Below are positions 2,526 through 14,329 of a stretch of 54,891 nt of DNA, piece after piece (position 1 is the stretch's first letter; each line of letters opens with the position of its first letter). The translations under genes were made by a program, and so were the position numbers. This stretch comes from Spirochaetales bacterium (GTDB lineage: Bacteria > Spirochaetota > GWE2-31-10), in the NCBI GenBank assembly GCA_050872545.1, contig JBNMHA010000003.1, positions 1 through 54,891 of the forward strand, read 5' to 3'. The notes under the pieces were generated by a model, which worked only from the letters and a program-made list of their open reading frames with translations, was not told the DNA's origin and searched no databases.

Positions 2526-5500
2526 TCATTCCTCATATTTCTTGAAATTTTCTGCCTGATCAAAAACTTCCTTAAAGACTTCTTCGCGAGGAACCGGAGG
2601 ATAGCCGTTTTCATCAAGCAGAATCCGCAAATCTGCCTTCATTTCAGCCTTTACATCCAACCGCTGATTCCAGTCCGTATATTTTACATTTTGGGCGACA
2701 AGAATCTTAACTTTTTTGGCAAGCTCAATCATCTTCATTTTTGGATACTGGTCTTCAAAATTAAATCGTTTGGCGCAGCTTACAAGAATGTCATAAAACG
2801 CTTTTTCTTCAAAATCAATTCCCATAGCCTCAAAGGATTTTTTGTCTTCCATCATATCAGCAAAAAGCTGATTCAATTGTTCTGCAACATCATCAAGAAC
2901 CTTGCTTGCAAAATCTCCGTCATTGAAACGATTGTTGTAAGCGATAATCAAATTGTTCAAGCGTTCAGAAAATTCCGTCGCCTTTATTTTGTTCGTTTTC
3001 TTATATTCACCGATTGCCTGCCTTAAAAGCTGCTCAAGTATTTTGATTTTTGTATTTGGGAGCAGAAGCCTGTTAATTTTTTCAAGATATTCATAACTGA
3101 ATAAATCAAAGTTTACATTTCTTCCGACCTGAAAAAGTTCCTCCACACCGTCAGATTTTATCGCTTCCTGAATCAGTTTTGAAACGTGGCTATTCATCGT
3201 GGCAATATCAGGGGCATCGCCTTTTGTAAGTTTAAAAAGAATCGCACGGACTGCAATATAAAAATTAATCTGATTTTTTTCATCATCGGAAAATGATTCG
3301 CTTGTAGAGCAAAGGTCAAACGCCTTTTTCATTTTGCACGCGGCTTCCATAAAACGTTTTTCCAACTCTTCGTTAAACTGAACATACTCAACAGCCCTGT
3401 TCAAGGTTTCAAGCTGCTGAAACGGAGTTCCATTATAATACAACGACGCGTCAAACTTGTTGAACATTGCATTAACAACGCTCAATTGGTCTTTCACAAT
3501 TACAACAGCTTTTTCAGAATCTTCAAATTCTTCCTGTTCTCCGTCAGTATATTTTTTAAGAGCTTCATTCATTGCCTTTTTGATTCCGATGTAATCGACA
3601 ACGAGTCCTTTCTCTTTTCCTTTGTAAGTTCTGTTTACGCGGCTGATTGTCTGAATCAATGTATGTTTTTGAATCGGTTTAAAAATATAGATAGTATCAA
3701 GTGAAGGAACATCAAAACCTGTAAGCCACATATCGCAGACAATTGCAATCTTAAAATTAGATTTTTCATTTTTGAACTGGCGGTCAAGCTCTTTGCGGTA
3801 TTCGTGATTTCCAAGAAGCTCAAAAAGTCCTTTTGTGTCTTTCGCCTTGTTCTCGGTCATCACCATTTTGACTTTTTCAATTGGTTTTAGTTCCTTTTTT
3901 TCTTTTTCAGAAATGAGCACATCATCTGAGCAAAGTCTTTTTTCATTCCATCGCGGACGCAGGCGAATAATTTCTTTCCATAAATCAAAAACAACTTCGC
4001 GGGAAGAACAGACAAACATTGCCTTTCCAAGGACAGTGGCACCTTCACGAACGCGGGTTTCATAATGATTTATAAAATCCTCAGCAACGGCTTTTATAAC
4101 ATCAGGGTCGCGCAAAATCGCCTCAAGATTCGTAACAGCCTTTTTGCTCTGCTCAATCTGATTTTCATTTGCCCCGTCTTCTGCACACTGCGCATAATAA
4201 TTTTCAATTTCAAGAATTTTTTTATAATCAAGAAAAACTTTTGTTGCCCGTCCTTCATAAACAAGATTCGCAGTAATTCCATCGGCAACAGACTCTTTCA
4301 TTGTGTAAGTGTCTACAATTTCGCCAAAAACTTTTTCCATTTCATCAATCGGAGTTCCTGTAAAACCGACATAAGTTGCATTTGGAAAAGAATCATGCAG
4401 ATATTTTGCAAAACCGAATTTGTGCTCAACAATTCCCTTTTCATCATTCAGCACAAGTTTCTCATCAAGATTGTTTTGCGAACGGTGGGCTTCGTCGCTT
4501 ATGCAGATAATGTTTGAGCGGTCAGAAAGAAGTTTTATGTCCTCGCTGAATTTCTGAATTGTCGTAAGATAAACACCACCGCTCTGACGATCACGAAGTT
4601 TTTTGCCAAGTTCGGAACGGCTTTCTATTGTTTCAATATTCTGGTCGCCGATATAATTTTTTGATTTAAGAAAAAGACTTCCAAGCTGGTCATCCAAATC
4701 AGTTCTGTCGGTAATAACAATGATGGTCGGACTTTTGAGCGAAGTTGATTTCATCAATAGCCGGCACAAGAAAACCATGGTATAACTTTTGCCGCATCCT
4801 GTAGCACCAAAATAGATTCCGCCCTTGCCGCTGCCATTCGGTTTTATGGAAGATTTTATGCTTTCAAAAAGTTTTGTTGCCGCAAAAAACTGAGGATAAC
4901 GGCAGACGATTTTTGTTTCCTTGTCGCCTGAATCTGGAAAATACAAAAAATCTTTTATAACCGCAAGAAGCCGTTCCGGTCTGAAACATCCGTTAATCAT
5001 TGTGATTAAGGAACTTATTCCGTCAACTTCCTTGTCTGTGCTTTCAACTTTGCGCCAGGCATAAAAATATTCATAAGGCGAAAAAATCGAGCCCATCTTG
5101 GAATTTGCGCCGTCGGAAATCACTACAAAAGCGTTGTACTTAAAAAGTTCCGGAATATCGCGGCGGTAGCGCACGGCAAGCTGCTTGTATGCATCCTCAA
5201 TCGTAGTGTTTTCCCTGATTGCAGACTTGAACTCCAGGACAACAAGCGGAATTCCGTTCACGTAAACAATGCCGTCCGGAATACGAAGCTGTTCCCTGCC
5301 CTGTACTTCAAGCTGATTCACAATCTGAAAAATATTGTTTTCAGGATTTTCAAAATCAATCAGATTTATAAAAAGGTCTTTTTTAGCAGAATCATCGCGG
5401 CGGATTGTAAACCCATTGCAGATAAAATCAAGAATCCGCCTGTTTTCATCATAGAAATCCGAAGAGACATTTTTGATTTTATTCACAGCTGCTGAGATTT

Positions 5501-5675
5501 CGCTTTGAGTAATATTCTGGTCTGAATACCGAAACAAAAGAAAATTGCGAAGAACATCGGTCAAAAGAACTTCCGTTTTGTCGTGGTGAATCTCGCTGCC
5601 GGTAAGGTGCGCATATCCCGCATTTTCAAACAGCTCAATGATGGAAAGTTCCAATGCGTGCTCGTTGAATTGCAT
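2526..5675 (-). CDS. hsdR: Type I restriction enzyme R subunit
   Basis: PDGIVYVNGIPLVVLEFK nuclease motif, GATGCGKS Walker A, DEAHRSQ, GFTGTP, MWLTGFDVP, QTISRVNR; 1049 aa. Confidence 0.97.
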   Translation of the reverse strand: MQFNEHALELSIIELFENAGYAHLTGSEIHHDKTEVLLTDVLRNFLLFRYSDQNITQSEISAAVNKIKNVSSDFYDENRRILDFICNGFTIRRDDSAKKDLFINLIDFENPENNIFQIVNQLEVQGREQLRIPDGIVYVNGIPLVVLEFKSAIRENTTIEDAYKQLAVRYRRDIPELFKYNAFVVISDGANSKMGSIFSPYEYFYAWRKVESTDKEVDGISSLITMINGCFRPERLLAVIKDFLYFPDSGDKETKIVCRYPQFFAATKLFESIKSSIKPNGSGKGGIYFGATGCGKSYTMVFLCRLLMKSTSLKSPTIIVITDRTDLDDQLGSLFLKSKNYIGDQNIETIESRSELGKKLRDRQSGGVYLTTIQKFSEDIKLLSDRSNIICISDEAHRSQNNLDEKLVLNDEKGIVEHKFGFAKYLHDSFPNATYVGFTGTPIDEMEKVFGEIVDTYTMKESVADGITANLVYEGRATKVFLDYKKILEIENYYAQCAEDGANENQIEQSKKAVTNLEAILRDPDVIKAVAEDFINHYETRVREGATVLGKAMFVCSSREVVFDLWKEIIRLRPRWNEKRLCSDDVLISEKEKKELKPIEKVKMVMTENKAKDTKGLFELLGNHEYRKELDRQFKNEKSNFKIAIVCDMWLTGFDVPSLDTIYIFKPIQKHTLIQTISRVNRTYKGKEKGLVVDYIGIKKAMNEALKKYTDGEQEEFEDSEKAVVIVKDQLSVVNAMFNKFDASLYYNGTPFQQLETLNRAVEYVQFNEELEKRFMEAACKMKKAFDLCSTSESFSDDEKNQINFYIAVRAILFKLTKGDAPDIATMNSHVSKLIQEAIKSDGVEELFQVGRNVNFDLFSYEYLEKINRLLLPNTKIKILEQLLRQAIGEYKKTNKIKATEFSERLNNLIIAYNNRFNDGDFASKVLDDVAEQLNQLFADMMEDKKSFEAMGIDFEEKAFYDILVSCAKRFNFEDQYPKMKMIELAKKVKILVAQNVKYTDWNQRLDVKAEMKADLRILLDENGYPPVPREEVFKEVFDQAENFKKYEE

Positions 5676-5677
5676 AT

Positions 5678-6823
5678 TCAGACCTCCGAAATAAATTCAA
5701 GATAATTGTCTTTTGTAACTACAGAAAAAGGAATTTCAGGATAACTATTTGAGAATGTCAACGGACATTTTACATTTGCCTTTTTAGAATTGTACTTAAA
5801 CTCATAAGCAGAAAATTTTCCGTCAATTTCTTCTATGAAGTCAATTTCCTGTTTTTGTGTTGTACGCCAAAAATAGTATTTCGCTTTTCTATTATGGAAG
5901 GCATTATTTTTTACACGTTCACTTATCAAAAAATTTTCCCAAATCATGCCAATATCAGAACGCAAATCGCAGGGAGAAAAATTTGAGATAACAGCATTTC
6001 TAACACCGTTATCATAAAAATAAATCTTTATGCTTTTTTTTAGCTCATTTCGAACATTACGGCTGTATGAATGAAGATGAAAAACAACATAAGCCTTTTC
6101 AAGCAAATCCACATATTTTTGAACAGTAAGAGTATCAATTCCTAAAAGATTTCCAAGCTCATTGAATGAAACTTCACTTCCAACTTGCAAAGCAAGGGCT
6201 TGAACCAGTTTTTCAATTACAGCCGGCTTCCTAATATCTTGAAATTCAAAAACATCCTTATAAAGATAGCTTGAAACAATATTAGAAAGAATTTCTTTTT
6301 CTTCACCGGGATTATTTACAACATCAGGATAAAAACCATAGACGAGTCTATTTTCAAGCCGTTTCATTTCATCAAGCATATTTGAATTTGAAACAAGTTC
6401 ATTTGTCGAAAAAGGAAAAAGATTATATTCAAACTTTCGCCCGGTCAAAGGCTCATTTATGGTATTTGACAAATCAAGTGCAGAAGAGCCGGTTACAGCA
6501 ATCTGAACTTCCGGAAAGTTATCATGCAGGATTTTAAGCTTAAGCCCAATATTCTGAACACGCTGAGCTTCGTCAATAACAATAAATTTCGAATTTCCTA
6601 TAAGTAACTTGAACCTAGCGGAAGATTCTTCTGATAAGATTTTTCTAACTTCAACTTCGTCACAATTCCAATACTGAACAAAATTGTTTTCAAAATTTTC
6701 AGAAAGGATTTTTCTTAACAGAGTAGTTTTTCCTACCTGCCGTGGACCAATCAGAATTAAAACCTTGCCGCTCCCTATTTTTCCCTCAAGAATTTTCTGC
6801 AAATCACGCTTGATTTCTTTCAT
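5678..6823 (-). CDS. AAA_14/DUF4143 family ATP-binding protein
   Basis: GPRQVGKTT, IDEAQR, TGSS, LTGRK, wHTH-like middle region, C-terminal YFWRT..QEIDF..YEFK. Start set to ATG 6823. Confidence 0.92.
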   Translation of the reverse strand: MKEIKRDLQKILEGKIGSGKVLILIGPRQVGKTTLLRKILSENFENNFVQYWNCDEVEVRKILSEESSARFKLLIGNSKFIVIDEAQRVQNIGLKLKILHDNFPEVQIAVTGSSALDLSNTINEPLTGRKFEYNLFPFSTNELVSNSNMLDEMKRLENRLVYGFYPDVVNNPGEEKEILSNIVSSYLYKDVFEFQDIRKPAVIEKLVQALALQVGSEVSFNELGNLLGIDTLTVQKYVDLLEKAYVVFHLHSYSRNVRNELKKSIKIYFYDNGVRNAVISNFSPCDLRSDIGMIWENFLISERVKNNAFHNRKAKYYFWRTTQKQEIDFIEEIDGKFSAYEFKYNSKKANVKCPLTFSNSYPEIPFSVVTKDNYLEFISEV

Positions 6824-6830
6824 ATCAAAG

Positions 6831-6859
6831 ATTATACGACAAGCAATCAGCCTAATCAA
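6831..6859 (-). promoter_or_regulatory. Sigma70-like promoter for DUF4143 ATPase-hsdR, probably leaderless
   Basis: Minus strand TTGATT (6859-6854), 17-bp spacer, TATAAT (6836-6831), then 7 nt to ATG 6823 with no SD. Confidence 0.7.
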
Positions 6860-6915
6860 CAAAAATTATAATATTTATTGATTATAATCGAAAATTATTA
6901 TAATTTTTGTTGATT
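6854..6915. promoter_or_regulatory. 62-bp near-perfect palindrome with three ATTATAAT boxes (putative operator)
   Basis: Perfect 19-bp arms AATCAACAAAAATTATAAT / ATTATAATTTTTGTTGATT around central GATTATAATC; ATTATAAT at 6865, 6881, 6897. Confidence 0.65.
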
Positions 6916-6947
6916 TCGTATTAAAAATTATCTTTCCACTGCTTTGA

Positions 6948-6987
6948 AATCTGCGAAACGAGAAGTTGTTTTAGTTATTCAAGTTTT
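6948..6987 (-). repeat. Direct repeat copy 1 (duplicated hsdS 3' end, pseudo-fragment)
   Basis: 39/40 identical to 10551-10590. Translates KLE*LKQLLVSQI versus HsdS KLEQLKQLLVSQI. Confidence 0.93.
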
Positions 6988-7053
6988 CCGCGACTCTGTA
7001 TTGTGAGTTCAAATACCACTCGAAACACTAGGCTACAATTTTCTTGCAATTTA

Positions 7054-9305
7054 TTACTGTTTCTGACGAACTTGAGACTTAACTTCAAGATTATTTGTTA
7101 CAAAACTTTTTTCTCTAAGTTCATTTACCATATCTGTATAGATATCTTTTCCTTTTGGATCTCTTATTGTTAACACTAATATAAACTCTTGTTCTGGCAA
7201 ACCCACATCATATCTTGTCAATCTACTAATCTCTAACTTCCAATAATTCCCTTCTTGAATCCCATGTTTCAAATTATGATAATAAGCTTTTATAGATGAC
7301 CATTTTGAACCATTTTTCACTCTTTCTTTTTCAAAAGCAAATTCATTTCCTTTTTCAAGTTCAACTTTTGAACTATATTTTTTACCAGAATAAACAGGTC
7401 CAAAACTTACATCCACATTTGACCTACAATAGCTAACTCCATAATTTTTATCAAGTAAAGGGGAATATACCAAAGTCATAAATATCTCACCATGATATTT
7501 TCCATCATAAATGAGTGATTTTGGGAAAGGAAAATCTAACATTTCCAACATTTTGCCTTGCTTTATTCCCTGTTTAAAAACAATTGTGATTTCATCTGAA
7601 CTTGTTCGTAATATATCCTGCGGATCATCAGGTGCCATTCCATATCCAGTATATAATCTTTGTTTTTTTTCAATTAAAGACTTTGAATTAATTCTGGCTG
7701 AATGAATAAGCAATGCTTTTGCCAATAATAAATCTTTTTCAACCAGTTCATCATAAACACATGAATATTTATATAATGCCCTTGGAGTTGCAAAACTTGT
7801 TCCAATATTTTCGACTATTTTATTATCTGGTGTCATACCAAATATACCTAGATTTCTTGATTTTTTAAATTCATTATAATTTCCACCATAATCAACAAGT
7901 TCTGGTTTAATCATATAACCAACACCAGGTCCTCGGCGTGAAAAAGGAGATGGTTCATTCTTTTTTGAATAAGAGTCATCCGAATCTTTTAACGCAAGAG
8001 AACCAACTGTGATAGCCCGAACAGAATCTGCTGGTGAAATAATCCTATCAGAATCATCATCTTTATATGCAAAAGGCCAGTTTTCATTTCTAATTACATT
8101 TCCTGCCGATACAAAAAATTGAACATTATACTTATCTTGCATAATATCTAGAAATTCACCAAAATCAGAAATCTCTCCATTACATATACAATCTGGTAAG
8201 CCTACAGAAAGATTCCAAATCTTAACAACTCCACTATACTGTTTCATGCATTCTTCAATTATATCCATCAAATCATCTTCTGAAATTGAATCTGTATACC
8301 CCACGGCAGGTTCATTGTTAGACAATGCTTCTATATCTAATAATTTAAATCTTTTTGGCTTTGTTTCTGATATATTATTCAAATAATTCCCATATAATAT
8401 TGTCGATGCGATAAATGCACCATGTTGATGATTTTGATAATCAACACCAACATAACTTTTTCTTTCAACAACATATTGATTCAGTGCAGAATTTTTATCT
8501 CCAATTCCACCATCAATAATTCCAATTATTGTATCAGATTCTGTATATGAAATATTATTTAATTTTCCATATCTACTATATCTAATGAAAATGATGGTAA
8601 AACATAAGTATGGAATATATCTATCGATTGAACTCCAACTATATTTGAAATTTTTTCAAGGTCCACCTTTGAATTTAGCTCAAGTTTATATAGTTTCGAT
8701 TTTTCATGTATTACTGGTTGTAATTTACCCAGCAAGTCAAGTTCTCGTAACTTTTGAAAAAAATAACGTTTCGTTTTTTCATTTATTTCATCATCACCAT
8801 AATCAAAAAGCCTTACTTTTATTGATTTTTTTAATTTCTCAAAATCATTATCATTAACACTTCTTAAAATAACAGATAATTTATCTTCTGACAAAATAGG
8901 AATAATACTATCTATTGCTGTTATATTAGCCTTTACTCCATCTTTATCAGACTTTTGAGCTATTTCTACACTTTCTTTTAATGAAGACTCTGTTACTTGA
9001 ATATAAAATTGATTAATATCTTTAGAACCAAAAATATGGTTATTTTTAAGTAACAAATCTGGAGTGTGGGATTTTGCACAAGCTTCATCTTTCATGATTA
9101 ACATGGCAACAGCAGGTATCAAGTTTTTTGTTTCTTCAAAAAAAGAAGCATAGTAATCGATAACACCTTTAAAACAATTAATAATATTATTCTGAACATT
9201 TACATTATAATCTCCAAAGAATTTCTTTGGACCACCACCAGTATGAATGGGCTTCACATCATCTTTTCTAGGTAATACAATTTTAATTGGTAAATTCTTA
9301 TTCAT
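7054..9305 (-). pseudogene. ietS: S8 subtilase, IetS-like, frameshifted near 8563-8566
   Basis: ORFs 8559..9305 and 7054..8382 are joined by a -1 frame change. The gap encodes IIGIIDGG (Asp) and HGAFIAS (His) in frame with GTSFATP (Ser). One extra A in ATGGAAAATT restores a ~750-aa protein. Start overlaps the ATPase stop. Confidence 0.85.
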
Positions 9306-10440
9306 TTTCTTCTCCTTCACTATTATCTAATAATGGTTTTATTTGCGATTTAGAAATATGCAATATTTCAGATATCAAGTCATATGAAAATGGCTTTCCA
9401 ATTTCATTATATAAATACGAACATACTTGTTTCTGATAATTTTTTTTATCTTCATCTGGATTAGAAAAATTCTTATATAAAAAGAATTCTCTATATATTT
9501 TTTGTACTGAATACTGTTGATTATGTACTATAGCGTTTCTTATAGATTTTTTTATTATTTCTTCAATATTTGATCCACTTAGATTCTTAAAAGCATAAGA
9601 TAAATAATCCTTATCCTTATCTGAAATATTCAATGAATTATTTATAAATAAATCCAGCATACTTCTAATTGTCTTTTGGTCTGGCAAGGATACTTCCAAT
9701 TTATAATCAAATCTTCTCCATACTGCAGAATCTAACAACTGTGCATGATTAGTTGCAGCTATCAGAAGACTATCCTTACTCATAGTATCTATATTTTGTA
9801 ACAAGCTGTTTACAACTCTTTTTAATTCTCCAAGTTCATTATTATCATCACGAGCTTTTGCAAGAGCATCAAACTCATCCAGAAATAAAACACATGGAAT
9901 CCTCTGGGCATATTCAAACAATGTACGAATATTTTTTGCAGTTGTACCAAGATATGATGAAATCATACTGTCCAAACGAGCGGTTATTAGCGGTAAATTC
10001 AGTTCTTTGGCAATCCATTTTGCACATTCTGTTTTTCCGCAACCAGGTGGACCATATAACAATAAAGTATTTGAAACGCCAACTCCAAGCTGATTTAATT
10101 TATCAGCATTTTTATAATTTAAAATAAATGATTTTAAATTGCTCGTATTATTATCAGAAAGAATTACATTTGCTGCGTTATCTTTAGGAGAAATATAATC
10201 AGCCAAAGAAATTCTAGATTCATTATCAACAGGAATATTCCCTATAAACGAATCCAAACTATTTGGCTTTAACTCTTTCATCTCTTCATTTTTTAAAAGC
10301 TTAGAAAATTTTGAAGCGGCTCTTTCTTCTCCGTCAACGATAAGTTTATCTATTAACATTTTGGTATAATTTTTAACCTTTAACAAATCACCTTTAAGAG
10401 AACCTTCTACTATTTTTCCTATTTCAATTGAATAATTCAT
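9298..10440 (-). CDS. ietA: AAA+ ATPase, IetA-like partner of S8 protease
   Basis: GPPGCGKT, FLDEFD, ELGELKRVVNSLLQ, AATNH, AVWRRFD; C-terminal HTH-like FSYDLISEILHISKSQI. Start set to ATG 10440 (SD AAAGGT). Confidence 0.9.
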   Translation of the reverse strand: MNYSIEIGKIVEGSLKGDLLKVKNYTKMLIDKLIVDGEERAASKFSKLLKNEEMKELKPNSLDSFIGNIPVDNESRISLADYISPKDNAANVILSDNNTSNLKSFILNYKNADKLNQLGVGVSNTLLLYGPPGCGKTECAKWIAKELNLPLITARLDSMISSYLGTTAKNIRTLFEYAQRIPCVLFLDEFDALAKARDDNNELGELKRVVNSLLQNIDTMSKDSLLIAATNHAQLLDSAVWRRFDYKLEVSLPDQKTIRSMLDLFINNSLNISDKDKDYLSYAFKNLSGSNIEEIIKKSIRNAIVHNQQYSVQKIYREFFLYKNFSNPDEDKKNYQKQVCSYLYNEIGKPFSYDLISEILHISKSQIKPLLDNSEGEENE

Positions 10441-10538
10441 TTTCGTACCTTTACAAGCAATATAAACGAACAAATCGTTTTTGTAAAGAACAAAATATGT
10501 ATCTTCACGAACAATTCTAATATTTTTAAGAACTCTCA

Positions 10539-11669
10539 CTACTTCCTTGCAATCTGCGAAACGAGAAGTTGTTTTAGTTGTTCAAGTTTTTCAAGTTCTT
10601 TTTCGTTTAATAAAATCTGTGCAAATAATGGCGAAACTTTTTCATCAAAACTCCGCATATCTTTTTCACTTGGAATTTTCAATTTTATAGAAGCAAAAAG
10701 TGATTTGCTAACATTCAAAGTTGTACTTCCGCCAGCTCCAAGTCTTTTTAATTCTTCTGTCATGTTTTTTAGCGTTAAAAAAACATAGTAAAAAGAAACA
10801 TCAGATTTGCAAATAATAGAATTAATCTGCTGATTTGTCTGACTTTCTTTTGTTGTTAATGAAACAAGCCCCACTGTTGCAATACAACTAACGCAAATTG
10901 AATTTGCTGGTAAAGTTTGTTTTGCTTGAGATTTTTTTCCATAGTCGGACAAATATCTTTCTGTTGTATGTATAAAATTATTTCCATGCATATCTGGAAT
11001 TGTAATAAATGGGATTTCTTTTCCCCAATATTCTTTTACTGATGTTGATGGAGTTTTGCCGCAAATTACATTTTCAGATATTTCTTCTATCGTTTTTACT
11101 TCAAACAAATCTTTATCTTTCGTCATTTCCTCAAACAGACATTGCGCTGTCTCTTCCAGCTTATCATTTATCTTCTGTTTAATCTTGATGCGGTTTTCTA
11201 TTGCGTTGTAGGCATCTACGATTTTTTGTTGTTCTTCAAGTGAAGGAACTGGGAGTTTCATGTCGCAAAAATCTTCCCACGGCATACTTCCGCGCACCCC
11301 ACCAACAGCAATATAAGAAGCTTCGCGGTCAAACTCGGAACGCATAAACCACATTGATAAATAATCCGGAAGAATTTCCTCAGTATTTTTGATTCTGAAA
11401 ATATAATAAGCAGGAGACATAATTGCTTCATCGTAATCTTTAAGGCAAGCAATGGGAATTTTTCCATCACGGCTAACCTGCATAAGAGAACAAGCAAAAT
11501 CGAACTTTCTGATTACTTGATATTTTGACAAGTCTGTTCCTATTGTATTTGCAACAGATTTTATGAAACATTTATCAATACTAACGCCTATAAGAGTTTT
11601 TATTTTTCCATCTTTATTTCGCTCATCGATTAAATCAATCAATTCCCCAAGCTTTTTCAATTCACTCAT
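10539..11669 (-). CDS. hsdS: Type I R-M specificity subunit
   Basis: Two TRDs with conserved helices VPSLEEQQKIV...INDKLEETAQ and IPSE...LEQLKQLL; lies between hsdM and hsdR. Confidence 0.95.
   Translation of the reverse strand: MSELKKLGELIDLIDERNKDGKIKTLIGVSIDKCFIKSVANTIGTDLSKYQVIRKFDFACSLMQVSRDGKIPIACLKDYDEAIMSPAYYIFRIKNTEEILPDYLSMWFMRSEFDREASYIAVGGVRGSMPWEDFCDMKLPVPSLEEQQKIVDAYNAIENRIKIKQKINDKLEETAQCLFEEMTKDKDLFEVKTIEEISENVICGKTPSTSVKEYWGKEIPFITIPDMHGNNFIHTTERYLSDYGKKSQAKQTLPANSICVSCIATVGLVSLTTKESQTNQQINSIICKSDVSFYYVFLTLKNMTEELKRLGAGGSTTLNVSKSLFASIKLKIPSEKDMRSFDEKVSPLFAQILLNEKELEKLEQLKQLLVSQIARK
10551..10590 (-). repeat. Direct repeat copy 2 (inside hsdS 3' end)
   Basis: AATCTGCGAAACGAGAAGTTGTTTTAGTTGTTCAAGTTTT; matches 6948-6987 at 39/40. 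Confidence 0.93.
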
Positions 11670-11753
11670 CTATTTCTTCTCTCCAGCTTTTGCTTCTTTT
11701 TCCAAAGCCTCTATTGTTTCCAAATATGCCTTTTCAACTGGATTCATACTCAT
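11670..11753 (-). pseudogene. Mini-ORF (25-27 aa), possible C-terminal remnant of a RhuM-family gene
   Basis: MSMNPVEKAYLETIEALEKEAKAGEKK*; fills the hsdM-hsdS gap; AGGAG lies 6 nt before the second ATG (11747); TAG abuts the hsdS ATG. Confidence 0.5.
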
Positions 11754-11756
11754 CTC

Positions 11757-13322
11757 CTACAACTTAATCTCATAGCCCAAATTCTTGAACACATTGAGCA
11801 AGGCAACTTTGCTTTCTTCTTCCTGCTTGAGCAAGTCTGCAAGTTCTGTCTGTAAACTTTTCATTGTTGTGTCAAAATCTAGAGTTTCATCTCGGTTTAC
11901 AAATTCAATGTAGCGGCTTGGAACAAGGTTGTAGCCTTTTTCTGCGATTTCTTTTTTTGTTGCGCTGTAGCAGAATTCCGGAACATTTTTATAAGTTTTG
12001 TCTTTGCCTAACTGCTGCCAAGCATGAAAAGCTGAGGTTACTTTGTCGCGGTCATTTTGAGTAAGCTCGATGTATTTTTTTTCAAATGGGGAGCCCATCT
12101 GTCGCAAGTCCATAAAAAGAACTTCATCCTCACGGTTTCTGTAGCTCTTGATTTTTCCGTTCTGTTGAACCGTACGTGCTTTTTTATTTTTATTCAAAAT
12201 CCACAGCGTTACGGAAATATCTGTTGTATAGAAAAGATTTCTCGGAAGAATCACGATTGCCTCTACAAGATTGTTTTCTACAAGCCGCTTTCTGATTTCC
12301 AGCTCCTGCCCTTCGCCGCTTAACGCACCGTTGGCAAGCAAAAATCCTGCGACACCGTTCTGGCTCAATTTGCTTACCATGTGCAGAATCCAGCCGTAGT
12401 TTGCGTTGCTTGTTGGCGGAACAACATAACCGTTCCAGCGGGAATCGTCGGTAAGTTCATTTTCCGCACGCCAGTCTTTTTGATTGAACGGAGGATTTGC
12501 CATAATGTAGTCGGCGCGCAAATCTTTGTGCAAATCGTTTGTAAAAGTGTTGGCTGCCTTTTCGCCCAAATCACACGGAATTCCACGTATTGCAAGATTC
12601 ATCTTTGCCATTTTATATGTCGTTCCAGTTCCTTCCTGACCGTAAACAGAAATATCCTTTGCATTTCCGGCATGATTTTCCACAAATTTAAGCGACTGCA
12701 CAAACATTCCGCCCGAACCGCAGCAAGGGTCGTAGATTTTTCCTTTATACGGCTCAATCATTTCAGCAATCAGATTTACAACTGATTTTGGCGTATAGAA
12801 TTCGCCTTTTCCCTTTCCTTCCTGAAGCGCGAATTTTGTAAGAAAATATTCGTAGACGCGTCCCATGATGTCGTTTTCTTTGTCGGCGGTTGTCTGAATA
12901 TTGTTGATTTCGTCCAAAAGCGCCGCAAGTTTTGAAACATCAATTCCAAGGCGTGAATAATAGTTGTCCGGAAGTGCGCCTTTTAGCGAGGGATTCTGTT
13001 TTTCAATTGTGTTAAGCGCTGTGTCGATTTTTAACGCAATGTCCGGCTGCTTTGCATTTTCCATTATGAACGGCCAGCGGGATTCCTGCGGAACAAAAAA
13101 GACATTTTTCATGTCATAGAATTCCTGCAAGTCCAAATATTTTTCTTTGCCTTCCGCAATAAGTTCATTACGTCGGTCGCTGAATTTATCGTTTACGAAT
13201 TTCAGAAAAATTAGGCTAAGGACAACATGCTTATATTCTGCAGGCTCAACTGTTCCGCGCAATTTATCACAGGCACTCCAAAGCGCATCTTCAAAACTTA
13301 CAACTTTCTTTGCTTTTGCCAT
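11757..13322 (-). CDS. hsdM: Type I R-M N6-adenine methyltransferase M subunit
   Basis: LWSACDKLRG, GEFYTP, YDPCCGSGGMF, ANPPFN. Confidence 0.97.
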   Translation of the reverse strand: MAKAKKVVSFEDALWSACDKLRGTVEPAEYKHVVLSLIFLKFVNDKFSDRRNELIAEGKEKYLDLQEFYDMKNVFFVPQESRWPFIMENAKQPDIALKIDTALNTIEKQNPSLKGALPDNYYSRLGIDVSKLAALLDEINNIQTTADKENDIMGRVYEYFLTKFALQEGKGKGEFYTPKSVVNLIAEMIEPYKGKIYDPCCGSGGMFVQSLKFVENHAGNAKDISVYGQEGTGTTYKMAKMNLAIRGIPCDLGEKAANTFTNDLHKDLRADYIMANPPFNQKDWRAENELTDDSRWNGYVVPPTSNANYGWILHMVSKLSQNGVAGFLLANGALSGEGQELEIRKRLVENNLVEAIVILPRNLFYTTDISVTLWILNKNKKARTVQQNGKIKSYRNREDEVLFMDLRQMGSPFEKKYIELTQNDRDKVTSAFHAWQQLGKDKTYKNVPEFCYSATKKEIAEKGYNLVPSRYIEFVNRDETLDFDTTMKSLQTELADLLKQEEESKVALLNVFKNLGYEIKL

Positions 13323-13359
13323 TTTTTCTCCAGCTGACTTGATAAAACAAATTTCTTCT

Positions 13360-13368
13360 ATTATATCA
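13360..13368 (-). promoter_or_regulatory. Extended -10 promoter of hsdM
   Basis: TGaTATAAT on the minus strand ~38 nt upstream of the hsdM ATG. Confidence 0.5.
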
Positions 13369-13534: not shown

Positions 13535-14329
13535 ATGGATAAAATTATTTTTGTTGCAAATATTTCAAAGCCTGCGAGTGAAATTTTTAATTCTCTTTCT
13601 CAAAAACATGAGACGATGATGTTAGATTTTAACAAGGAAAATCTTGTAAAAAAGATTTCAGAAGAGAATCCGATTCTGATTATTGTCTATTCAAAAGAAC
13701 TTTCACGTGATGATGTTCAAGCTCTTCATTTGATGCTTTCCGATGACAAAACGAAAAAATTTCCGGTACTTTTTATTGGCAGTGAAAATGATTACAGAGA
13801 TTACATTACGCCTTGGGGCGGAAATATTGCCGGAATTGTCCTTACTCCTGCTGTTCTCTCAACTGTTATAGATAAAATCAGTTTAGTTCTTGAATCAATT
13901 CATCAGAAAAATGGAGATGTAAATCTTTCAATTCAAAAAGATGAACCGGAAAAAGACGAAAGACGGCACATTCTGATTGTTGATGATGATTCGGTAATGC
14001 TACGCACAATGGTGAATATTTTAAAGGACACTTACCGGACAACTGTAGCAAAATCCGGAACGGCGGCTATTTCGCTTTTGGGAACGCAAAAACCCGATTT
14101 GATTCTGCTTGATTATTTAATGCCGGTTTGCGACGGACTTCAGACACTGCAGATGATTCGTTCGGAAGAAACTACAAAAGATATTCCGGTATTCTTCTTG
14201 ACCGGAGTAAGCGATGCAGAATGTGTAAAAAACGCAATGGCATTAAAACCTGAAGGATACATTTTAAAAGCTGCAGAACCAAAAGAAGTCCTCAAAAGGA
14301 TTGGAGATTTCTTTGCTAAAGAGCAATAG
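13535..14329 (+). CDS. Response regulator (degenerate N-terminal receiver plus intact C-terminal receiver)
   Basis: ILIVDDD...LILLDYLMP...FLTG...YILK; no DNA-binding output domain. Confidence 0.9.
   Translation: MDKIIFVANISKPASEIFNSLSQKHETMMLDFNKENLVKKISEENPILIIVYSKELSRDDVQALHLMLSDDKTKKFPVLFIGSENDYRDYITPWGGNIAGIVLTPAVLSTVIDKISLVLESIHQKNGDVNLSIQKDEPEKDERRHILIVDDDSVMLRTMVNILKDTYRTTVAKSGTAAISLLGTQKPDLILLDYLMPVCDGLQTLQMIRSEETTKDIPVFFLTGVSDAECVKNAMALKPEGYILKAAEPKEVLKRIGDFFAKEQ

Follow-up and report, generated by a model that had tools for sequence, protein, structure and literature searches.

A direct repeat of the hsdS 3' end around an IetAS module: a probable scar of module insertion into a Type I restriction-modification operon

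Introduction

How did an IetAS gene pair come to lie inside a Type I restriction-modification operon, bracketed by two near-identical copies of the hsdS 3' end? An earlier note on the 54,891-nucleotide stretch analysed here (the window) had proposed that the hsdS tail is a landing pad at which defence cargo is swapped without a recombinase. We consider it probable, at about 75%, that the repeat is a recombination scar of the kind called 'insertion with long target duplication', left by host recombination without a self-mobile element in a known cargo slot.

Results

The operon and its resident genes

In this region lies a Type I restriction-modification operon whose cargo slot, between hsdS and hsdR, is variable. 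Its gene order runs hsdM, hsdS, IetAS, orphan hsdS tail, DUF4143 ATPase and hsdR; hsdM, hsdS and hsdR are all on one strand and the nested genes are co-oriented with them, as in embedded defence genes. The resident features are as follows.

11757..13322, reverse strand: hsdM, 521 aa, first gene of the operon (Pfam N6_Mtase 1.2e-102, HsdM_N)
10539..11669, reverse strand: hsdS, 376 aa, intact, ending in KLEQLKQLLVSQIARK and the stop codon 10539-10541 (Pfam Methylase_S, PADLOC Specificity_I)
6854..6915, no strand: palindrome with 31-nt arms upstream of the DUF4143 gene (inverted-repeat search, 90% complementary)
5678..6862, reverse strand: DUF4143/AAA_14 ATPase, resident embedded gene (Pfam DUF4143 7.5e-40, AAA_14 2e-31; PADLOC candidate PDC-S01 2e-161)
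2526..5675, reverse strand: hsdR, 1049 aa (Pfam HSDR_N, SWI2_SNF2, T1RH-like_C)

At the amino acid level, the window HsdM is 96-98% identical to HsdM of G594, G652, G668, G685 and G568, HsdR is 95% identical to those of loci L170 and L172, and the DUF4143 ATPase is 98.7% identical to that of L170. The C-terminus of P0046 is identical to that of the window HsdS. The palindrome is kept together with the DUF4143 gene in G001, G004, L038, L170 and L186, and belongs to the DUF4143 module. GC content is 25-32% in the cargo, 42-47% in hsdM and 36-43% in hsdR.

The repeat pair and the orphan hsdS tail

Positions 6948-6987 and 10551-10590 form a direct repeat with a core match of 39/40, including 29 nt of unbroken identity. 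A longer form (6931-6987 against 10534-10590) matches at 88% over 57 nt, and the two copies are spaced 3603 nt apart. With up to 3 mismatches allowed, a pattern search located the 40-nt repeat at exactly two sites in the window (0 expected in 100 shuffles), and a search of the whole assembly did not find a third copy. Within the repeat itself there is no dyad symmetry.

6948..6987, reverse strand: left repeat copy, whose first 7 nt, AAAACTT (6981-6987), are the last bases in common with locus L021
10551..10590, reverse strand: right repeat copy, the segment of the live hsdS coding for CR2 (the C-terminal helix)
6921..6987, reverse strand: orphan native hsdS 3' end, 67 nt, with an in-frame TAA at 6975-6977 and a stop at 6921-6923

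The sole mismatch between the copies (6977 versus 10580) changes CAA to TAA, and the left copy is translated as GKLE, a stop, LKQLLVSQISKQWKDNF and a second stop. The right copy agrees with the left one at 38/39 in-frame nucleotides, compared with 33/39 for L021 and about 30/39 for L041; the two window copies are thus nearer to each other than to any other allele compared. The right copy differs from L021 at six positions, all of them between the blocks AAAACTTG and GTTTCGCAGATT.

The IetAS module

The insert of 3.56 kb contains IetA and IetS only.

10441..10550, reverse strand: module leader, made up of the four terminal hsdS codons, ARK and the stop, and a 98-nt untranslated stretch before IetA; common to L021 with 14 mismatches/110 nt
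9298..10440, reverse strand: IetA, AAA+ ATPase, 380 aa from the ATG at 10440 (PADLOC IetA 6.6e-140, Pfam AAA)
8559..9320, reverse strand: IetS N-terminal fragment, 253 aa (PADLOC IetS 2.3e-42, profile positions 3-232)
7054..8382, reverse strand: IetS C-terminal part, which includes the S8 peptidase region and lies in another frame than the N-terminal fragment (PADLOC IetS 2.9e-154, profile positions 310-748; Pfam Peptidase_S8)
6988..7053, reverse strand: 3' flank of the module, 66 nt; common to L021 with 4 mismatches/66 nt

IetA adjoins IetS on the same strand, as PADLOC expects of an IetAS system, and the IetA profile begins at residue 34 of the longer IetA ORF. The IetS frame, however, is broken. 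A -1 frameshift lies in an A-run near 8562-8566, where the N-terminal fragment ends; it appears as a single-base gap at 8566 relative to L021, in which IetS is a single intact ORF of 755 aa. X3 has an additional T after 8562, which X1 and X2 do not have. Profile positions 232-310 are covered by neither window ORF. Because of this frameshift the cassette is probably inactive in the window organism, and the module is probably already decaying.

These results bear out the descriptive part of the earlier note, namely that the 39/40 repeat is real, that its left copy is an orphan hsdS tail with a CAA-to-TAA change, and that only AAA+ and S8 genes (IetA and a split IetS) lie between the copies. The claim that no integrase or transposase is present also held, since two scans (11 + 34) of the 45 window ORFs did not find any integrase, transposase or recombinase Pfam family.

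An empty site identifies the left copy as the original hsdS end

The earlier note had named a lack of empty-site alleles as an outcome that would refute it; L170 (G594) is such an allele. Its intact hsdS ends in SQIAKQEKDNF and is followed directly by DUF4143 and hsdR. L170 is colinear with the window from 6987 to 2526 (95.0% over 4462 nt, 0 gaps), and the match starts at precisely the base that opens the left repeat, a position within the intact L170 hsdS. L170 carries a single CR2 and another hsdS allele, and its CR2 agrees with the left copy at only 33/40. Alleles closer to the window's own have the same type of tail: P0002 (92% identity), which has both window TRDs, and P0048, which has window TRD2 only, end in SQIAKQRKDNF. 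With its native tail the window HsdS would measure 376-3+8 = 381 aa, which fits P0002 (381 aa). On the strength of the empty site and of a full-length HsdS with the window TRDs and the same tail type, we take the left copy to be the original hsdS end and not a decayed second hsdS.

The terminal codons after VSQI track the downstream module. ARK-stop occurs with IetAS (window and L021), KQxKDNF-stop goes with DUF4143 (window orphan and L170), and ANRQREENDNA-stop goes with an AbiD-like gene, into the leader of which it reads (L172 and L173). The locus also makes plain that the handful of C-terminal HsdS residues beyond the coiled coil is set by the module downstream.

The same module behind a different hsdS

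L021 shares the window sequence from 10599 to 6981 at 98.4% (3620 nt, 1 gap). Its IetAS lies behind a different hsdS, only 42% identical to that of the window, and the homology diverges 7 nt into the left repeat, so that the overlap is AAAACTT. Divergence is uneven along the module. The IetAS coding part has 33 differences/3387 nt plus one indel (1%) and IetA is 99.5% identical in amino acids; the leader (10441-10550) has 14/110, the repeat region (10551-10599) has 6/49 and the 3' flank has 4/66. The module history is mosaic and must include one or more additional exchanges. L021 is without a second hsdS tail and has lost hsdR. Alternatively, a window-like ancestor could have given rise to L021 through a deletion whose end fell by chance 7 nt into the left copy, and the loss of hsdR agrees with such a deletion. 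A search of species-representative genomes and viral contigs did not find more copies of the IetAS module in other contexts.

Proposed origin of the scar

The ancestral order would have been hsdS (ending VSQISKQ.KDNF), palindrome, DUF4143 ATPase and hsdR. The 3.56-kb IetA-IetS module would then have been spliced in at the last conserved hsdS block, CR2, which corresponds to the C-terminal coiled-coil helix. The module presumably supplied its own three final codons and stop, so that the live hsdS now appears to end within the module leader, and the old hsdS end, from the first CR2 base on, would have been stranded behind IetS as the 67-nt orphan.

We infer the strand exchange behind the junctions. 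The likeliest route would combine two events: upstream, within hsdS or hsdM, homologous exchange with a donor operon in which IetAS already followed hsdS, and downstream an illegitimate join at the 7-nt microhomology AAAACTT, which ends the module 3' flank and begins CR2. The product would be no different if a circular CR2-IetAS molecule had integrated by a Campbell-type single crossover. The right copy may come from the donor or from the recipient. The repeat could allow the module to be deleted later; crossing over within the 29 identical nucleotides would restore a natural SKQWKDNF tail, and within the first 10 nt it would truncate HsdS.

Cargo and duplications in related loci

Cargo behind hsdS varies widely among close relatives, as the earlier note had expected, and many of the sister-locus cargo genes match PADLOC 'PDC' candidates. 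An orphan hsdS tail was found in none of the seven closest metagenome loci holding hsdS and in none of the 20 loci of family f18, all of which carry cargo. Two clear cases (L065 and L072) and a probable one (L105) were observed in a wider set of 83 loci. The hsdS relic measures 17-18 aa in the window and L065 and 65 aa in L072.

Some hsd or cargo gene junction is duplicated around cargo in 5/30 close loci. Cargo also lies between duplicate copies of hsdM tails, of Fic tails or of hsdS heads, with scars of the same kind in L186, L038, L039 and L188, and the duplicated segments in the sister loci differ in place, length and sequence. The duplication is therefore not peculiar to the hsdS tail. 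The proposal of the tail as a landing pad stands insofar as the CR2 segment is the proximal edge of the cargo slot; tail duplication, on the other hand, is not the usual route of cargo.

Discussion

Alternative readings

A stronger form of the landing-pad proposal would make the hsdS tail an active, recombinase-free site, through whose CR2 segment a circular molecule of tail plus cargo routinely integrates and excises. Campbell insertion would yield exactly the observed structure, the copies are nearly identical over the repeat, one module lies behind two different hsdS alleles, and the terminal codons covary with the downstream module. Moreover, the hsdS tail-end repeats of about 70 bp in pneumococcal tvr excise a circle without TvrR and in a recA- background (PMC6265443). 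We nevertheless consider this reading unlikely. The contigs of two runs hold the long form only, with no excised allele, deletion joint or circle among them, which counts weakly because contigs drop rare forms. L021 is without a second tail, the cargo-bearing f18 and closest metagenome loci are without an orphan tail, and the varying relic lengths and the duplication of other junctions point to imprecise general recombination and not to a dedicated site.

A broader idea, which we offer tentatively and with low confidence, is that hsd gene heads and tails and inter-gene junctions act as generic homology 'cassette borders' in Type I operons. Modules would carry a copy of the border, stack, excise as circles and re-insert by host recombination, and the window repeat would still be competent. 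If true, cassette borders would be an integrase-free counterpart of the integron for anti-phage genes.

We regard as very unlikely a site-specific route in which a tyrosine or serine recombinase encoded elsewhere would act in trans on the 40-nt repeat as an att-like core, as happens with integrase-less islands. The ends of the module are sharp and do not differ between its two contexts, the repeat sits at the 3' end of a gene for which the element brings a replacement end, like islands integrating into gene ends, and many phase-variable hsdS loci use dedicated recombinases (PMC6265443). Against this, no recombinase was found in the 55-kb window, where no integrase marks an end of the insert as in att-repeat genomic islands, nor among the scanned cargo ORFs of related loci. 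The repeat is also without dyad symmetry, and a single att site would not give the varied duplications seen in the sister loci.

The reading in which the left copy is all that is left of a full second hsdS, such as a silent phase-variation copy, after its decay in situ was named by the earlier note as an outcome that would overturn its view; this reading is largely refuted, and we give it hardly any credence. Tandem or partial hsdS copies do exist in this operon family (L047 and L044), and L072 retains its longer relic. But the 66 nt upstream of the orphan are IetAS module sequence, common to L021 and without hsdS similarity; L170 has the orphan sequence as the end of its sole hsdS, directly before DUF4143; and the DUF4143-hsdR relatives L038, L170 and L186 have no second hsdS there. 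Finally, a repeat-induced misjoin of two contigs in the metagenome bin, for which one can cite the 221 contigs of the assembly, is practically dismissed by a 9028-nt Logan contig spanning 4500-12732 in each of two runs (perhaps the source data) with 1 and 4 differing letters, and by the independent occurrence of the right junction in L021/X3 and of the left junction in L170.

Comparison with known systems

The preferred reading, a scar of insertion with long target duplication, can be compared with several known processes. In homology-facilitated illegitimate recombination, foreign DNA enters through one homologous anchor combined with one junction at a microhomology of 3-10 nt; it was reportedly described by de Vries and Wackernagel in 2002 in naturally transformable bacteria. 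The AAAACTT overlap of the window matches such a microhomology junction, the window event being read from the sequence alone.

Nobusato et al. 2000, cited in Furuta, Abe and Kobayashi 2010, is reportedly listed for insertion with long target duplication. Furuta, Abe and Kobayashi (2010; PMC2853133) describe direct repeats of >30 bp with an empty site in a relative and no mobile element, the repeats often spanning a start or stop codon. The likeness is close: repeats of tens of bp (theirs include one of 46 bp at 44/46) flank an insert of a few kb without transposase or integrase. The window likewise has repeats >30 bp and no mobility genes, its insert is <20 kb, and a relative offers the empty site with a single copy of the segment. 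The R and M genes for which that study screened are absent from the window insert, which is IetAS; there a restriction-modification system is inserted, whereas in the window an IetAS pair is inserted into a restriction-modification operon at the hsdS 3' end. The available text of that paper does not give a mechanism, and the window shows a 7-nt microhomology at one junction.

Kwun et al. (2018; PMC6265443) describe the tvr locus of S. pneumoniae, where a circle is excised through direct hsdS 'tail end repeats' and reintegrates, and where a recombinase- and recA-independent route acts at the long repeats. As in the window, direct hsdS 3' repeats bracket non-hsd genes inside a Type I operon. Unlike the window, tvr has the TvrR recombinase and alternative TRD segments and switches specificity with repeats of about 70 bp; the window has 40 bp and neither of the two, and no spare hsdS-like or TRD sequence was found between or beyond its repeats. 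The mechanism is thus not new: it fits a known insertion class, and excision at tail repeats is known from tvr. The scar class and the variable Type I cargo slot are both already known.

Defence genes embedded in Type I restriction-modification, BREX, DISARM and Hma operons were described by Payne et al. (2024; bioRxiv 10.1101/2024.01.29.577857), and TgvAB in VPI-2 of Vibrio cholerae (PMC11411939) is a further example of embedded defence genes. The window resembles these in its co-oriented cargo nested between hsdS and hsdR and in its DUF4143 gene, which matches a PDC candidate. Nesting in Type I, BREX and similar operons is thus known, and in the available text we found no account of the route in; the main text of the Payne preprint does not use 'recombination' and has 'repeat' once. 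Compared with those embedded genes, as that text presents them, the window locus adds a scar, and its occupied form can be set beside an empty site. Together with the second setting of the module and the microhomology visible at one junction, these make a rare full set, which points to ordinary host recombination at the last conserved hsdS block without mobile-element machinery. Its practical value is modest: models of defence-island turnover could use it as a worked case, and it suggests orphan hsd gene heads and tails as a simple search rule for recent cargo gain.

Organization of the operon and of the repeat pair

Comparison of the GC content of the cargo genes (25–32%) with that of hsdM (42–47%), together with PADLOC and a domain scan of the ORFs, confirmed the earlier note's description of an AT-rich stretch that has only the IetAS genes, and no integrase or transposase, between two copies of the hsdS 3' end. 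Integrase, transposase or recombinase domains were found in none of the 45 ORFs across the 55-kb window. The operon is arranged as follows.

Features of the Type I operon (window positions)
13322-11757, minus strand: hsdM
11669-10539, minus strand: hsdS
between hsdS and IetA, minus strand: leader, 98 nt
10440-9298, minus strand: IetA (PADLOC, 6.6e-140)
9320-8559 and 8382-7054, minus strand: IetS, two pieces (PADLOC profile positions 3-232 and 310-748)
minus strand: 3' flank of IetAS, 66 nt
6987-6921, minus strand: orphan hsdS tail
6915-6854: palindrome, 31-nt arms
6862-5678, minus strand: DUF4143/AAA_14 ATPase (PADLOC candidate PDC-S01, 2e-161)
5675-2526, minus strand: hsdR

A repeat search of the window paired 6931-6987 with 10534-10590 (57 nt, 88%). 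The core of this pair, 6948-6987 (left copy) and 10551-10590 (right copy), is identical at 39/40 positions, 29 nt of them unbroken, with a spacing of 3603 nt. In a pattern search allowing up to 3 mismatches, exactly two core sites were observed in the window and none in 100 shuffles, and the whole 2.6-Mb assembly gave no third copy. The right copy is the 3' end of an intact 376-aa hsdS, ...KLEQLKQLLVSQIARK-stop. Translation of the left copy gave ...GKLE-stop-LKQLLVSQISKQWKDNF-stop, where the first stop is the sole core mismatch, CAA to TAA; both the direct repeat and the orphan tail with this change are thus as first reported. The change recurs in hsdS tails: it is present in the window orphan (6975-6977) and in the orphan of a related locus, L065 (∼13711-13713, EN-stop-KL), and a change of the same kind occurs in the tail extension of L171 (reverse-complemented, ∼5470; ANR-stop versus ANRQREENDNA-stop). 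This recurrence is probably just the C-to-T bias of AT-rich DNA.

A one-base deletion in an A-run near 8562-8566 (A4 in the window, A5 in the related locus L021 and in sequencing run X3) splits IetS, which in L021 is a single 755-aa ORF. This −1 frameshift is in the contigs of both runs that are possibly the source data of the window, and not in X3. The stretch with the IIDGG motif, which we take to hold the catalytic Asp (S8 family), falls in neither ORF.

The palindrome at 6854-6915 (AT-rich, perfect-spacing) lies upstream of the DUF4143 gene, and the two are kept together in genomes G001 and G004 (same genus, without the Type I operon) and in loci L038, L170 and L186. The palindrome is likely to be the operator or promoter region of the DUF4143 gene. 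A scan for promoter and terminator consensus sequences gave counts no higher than in shuffles and was not used. The hsdM-hsdS spacer (11661-11741) has its match in L021, L171 and L173 (88–94%) where a RhuM fragment adjoins a Fic gene, and is a relic of cargo that the window has lost from the hsdM-hsdS slot.

The left copy as the end of the original hsdS

We searched 401 genomes of another family, f18, for the Type I system (cut-off E ≤ 1e-200) and found it in 35, with HsdM identity of up to 98%. One of these loci, L170, has the gene order hsdM, Fic-like gene, hsdS, DUF4143 (98.7% aa), hsdR (95% aa), and its positions 4939 to 9400 align with 6987 to 2526 of the window at 95.0% over 4462 nt with 0 gaps. 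The first aligned base is also the first of the left repeat, and in L170 it falls within an intact hsdS with the end ...KLAQLKQLIVSQIAKQEKDNF-stop. Judged by this alignment, L170 is the empty-site allele that the earlier note had called for. Consistent with this, the HsdS protein P0002, which is 92% identical to the window HsdS with both target recognition domains (TRDs) the same, ends ...SQIAKQRKDNF, as does P0048, whose TRD2 is that of the window HsdS. With the orphan tail, the window HsdS is predicted to have 376-3+8 = 381 aa, which is the length of P0002. From the empty site, the tails of both proteins and the length of P0002, we concluded that the orphan is the end of the original hsdS. 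The alternative that the left copy is the remnant of a second hsdS decayed in place was rejected, as the preceding 66 nt are part of the IetAS module, occur in L021 as well and have no similarity to hsdS.

We then compared the segment coding the C-terminal helix (CR2). The right copy matches the left at 38 of 39 in-frame nt, L021 at 33/39 and L041 at about 30/39; all six differences from L021 fall between blocks AAAACTTG and GTTTCGCAGATT. The left copy differs from the CR2 of L170 at 7/40 positions, although the adjoining downstream DNA is 95% identical. These comparisons with L021, L041 and L170 indicate that CR2 goes with the hsdS allele, and both window copies are of the window's own allele type. 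Unlike CR2, the codons after ...VSQI track the downstream module. ARK-stop accompanies IetAS in the window and in L021 (an ARK tail, read from the protein alone, is also in P0046), KQxKDNF-stop accompanies DUF4143 in the window orphan and L170, and in L172 and L173, where the hsdS frame continues into the leader sequence ahead of an AbiD-like gene, the ending is ANRQREENDNA-stop. As the terminal codons go with the downstream module, the end of CR2 is the proximal border of the cargo slot.

The whole Type I operon (2526-13363) is 93–95% identical in DNA to the operons of L170-L173, f18 loci in genomes of another order; outside the operon, the backbone does not align. Therefore, the operon has moved horizontally between distant spirochaete lineages.

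The IetAS module in a second context

The module (the IetA-IetS pair with its leader and 3' flank) is also present in L021, from a Treponema sp. bin, which has 10599 to 6981 of the window in common (98.4%, 3620 nt, one gap). The hsdS ahead of it is 42% identical to that of the window and is of the allele type of L170 (89% nt). After IetS, L021 has the 66-nt flank, AAAACTT, and then unrelated DNA without an orphan hsdS tail, so exactly 7 nt of the left repeat also belong to the end of the shared module. The 62 nt behind the L021 module had no counterpart in any locus of the comparison set. Downstream follow a DUF3791 module, which lies ahead of hsdR in L173, and sequence located just past hsdR in L173. 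These L173-like flanks, and the failure to find a close hsdR in the genome of L021, indicate that hsdR was deleted there.

Differences between the window and L021 are uneven: 33/3387 nt and an indel in the coding part, 14/110 in the leader, 6/49 in the repeat region and 4/66 in the 3' flank. The history of the module is accordingly mosaic, with at least one later exchange; the unevenness is only partly accounted for. The leader (10441-10550 versus 5279-5376 in L021) is about 13% diverged and the adjoining coding sequence about 1%, a contrast that points to a later exchange limited to the coding core or to quick leader turnover.

A DNA search with the cassette in 20 genomes of the same order matched only the DUF4143 palindrome, and not IetAS. 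In distant IetAS loci (L022-L034; IetA identity 58–64%), the window's Type I family was not found beside IetAS, save for weak matches in L022 (25–29% identity), so these loci do not bear on the junctions. The best match among viral contigs was 61% and plasmids gave one match (354 nt at 70.6%), no sign of phage or plasmid carriage.

Proposed routes of insertion and excision

Two routes would both yield the observed structure. In route (a), a donor operon with hsdS (window-type TRD2-CR2)-ARK-stop-IetAS-...GCGGAAAACTT would meet a recipient hsdS-DUF4143-hsdR operon; one exchange would be a homologous crossover upstream, in hsdS or hsdM, and the other join would be illegitimate, at the 7-nt AAAACTT common to the 3' flank of the module and the start of CR2. 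In route (b), a circular molecule carrying CR2 and IetAS would enter by a single crossover in CR2. We rank route (a) somewhat above route (b), because the L021 flank ends in AAAACTT without a tail and the relic lengths vary among sister loci. By either route, the outcome is an insertion with long target duplication, in the sense of Furuta et al. (PMC2853133).

Upon excision, a crossover in the 29 identical nt would restore a natural-type ...SKQWKDNF tail, and one in the first 10 nt of the repeat would leave an HsdS that stops early, at the TAA. In the Logan contigs of the two possible source runs, 4500-12732 is covered by the long form alone. No deletion joint between about 6987 and 10551-10590 is listed in the contigs of runs X1, X2, X3 and X5, and contigs cannot show rare variants.

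Junction scars in related loci

We scanned 83 related loci, 46 with a full hsdS and 37 with at least 1 kb downstream, using a protein-level HMM profile of the hsdS tail. L065 has an orphan tail, EN-stop-KLTELKELLISKLATIEN-stop, behind a 337-aa ORF; L072 has a 65-aa hsdS relic, 92% identical to the hsdS end of L075; and L105 has a probable orphan tail behind a Gabija GajA/GajB pair, at 14.8 bits, a score similar to that of a false positive in L037 (10852-10902, inside hsdS in another frame). A nucleotide search for the tail in the 83 loci returned only L021 and a short match in L041, and a per-locus search for tail duplicates (blastn-short) gave mostly spurious 13–16-nt matches, with L065 as the sole real lead. 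Orphan tails were found in none of 20 f18 loci (the resident tail in 18/20) and in none of the closest metagenome loci. All of these have cargo behind hsdS, including AbiD-like, AbiLi-like, PDC-S06, PDC-M24 and NB-ARC/TPR genes, which bears out the cargo variation expected in close relatives.

Self-comparison of 30 close loci revealed an orphan hsdM tail with the start of the next gene in L186 (48 nt, 98%), orphan Fic tails with the hsdS start in L038 (79 nt) and L039 (88 nt), and an orphan hsdS head in L188 (33 nt). Junction duplications around cargo are present in 5 of these 30, the window included. Junction duplication is recurrent, but it is neither specific to the hsdS tail nor the main route of cargo exchange. 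Thus, the proposal that the hsdS tail is a recombinase-free landing pad for swapping defence cargo is supported in that the end of CR2 borders the cargo slot, but not as the main route, and other junctions are duplicated too.

Direct repeats of 29–165 nt flank the entire hsdM...hsdR island in L173 (1333-1429/11186-11282), L043 (6053-6217/19760-19924) and L184 (1244-1277/9124-9231), and resemble a further layer of scars on a larger scale, of the long-target-duplication or att-like kind. A palindromic element of ∼78 nt (DNA hairpin z-score −7.5), absent from the window, lies just past the hsdM stop and past successive cargo genes in L181 (3066-3103, 3498-3576, 4685-4766), and is also present in L182, L036, L037, L040, L043 and L188. 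A small PDDEXK_3 nuclease gene is flanked by a lone left arm on one side and a full copy of this element on the other, as if inserted into the hairpin.

Comparison with known systems

The long target duplication class, as described in PMC2853133, comprises insertions without a mobile element whose flanking repeats exceed 30 bp and frequently cover a start or stop site, and for which a related genome keeps the site unoccupied. Nesting of defence genes inside Type I operons is likewise already on record (Payne et al. preprint; PMC11411939). With both phenomena known, the window locus is a further case: the observation in the earlier note stands and its interpretation is partly supported. The nearest system described with excision activity via hsdS tail-end repeats is the pneumococcal tvr, where, according to PMC6265443, direct repeats of ∼70 bp excise a circle, also without the recombinase and in recA-. 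As portrayed there, tvr has a recombinase and spare TRDs, whereas the window locus is without both. What this locus adds is a clean triplet of occupied site, empty site and second context, a microhomology visible at one junction, and HsdS terminal codons tied to the downstream module.
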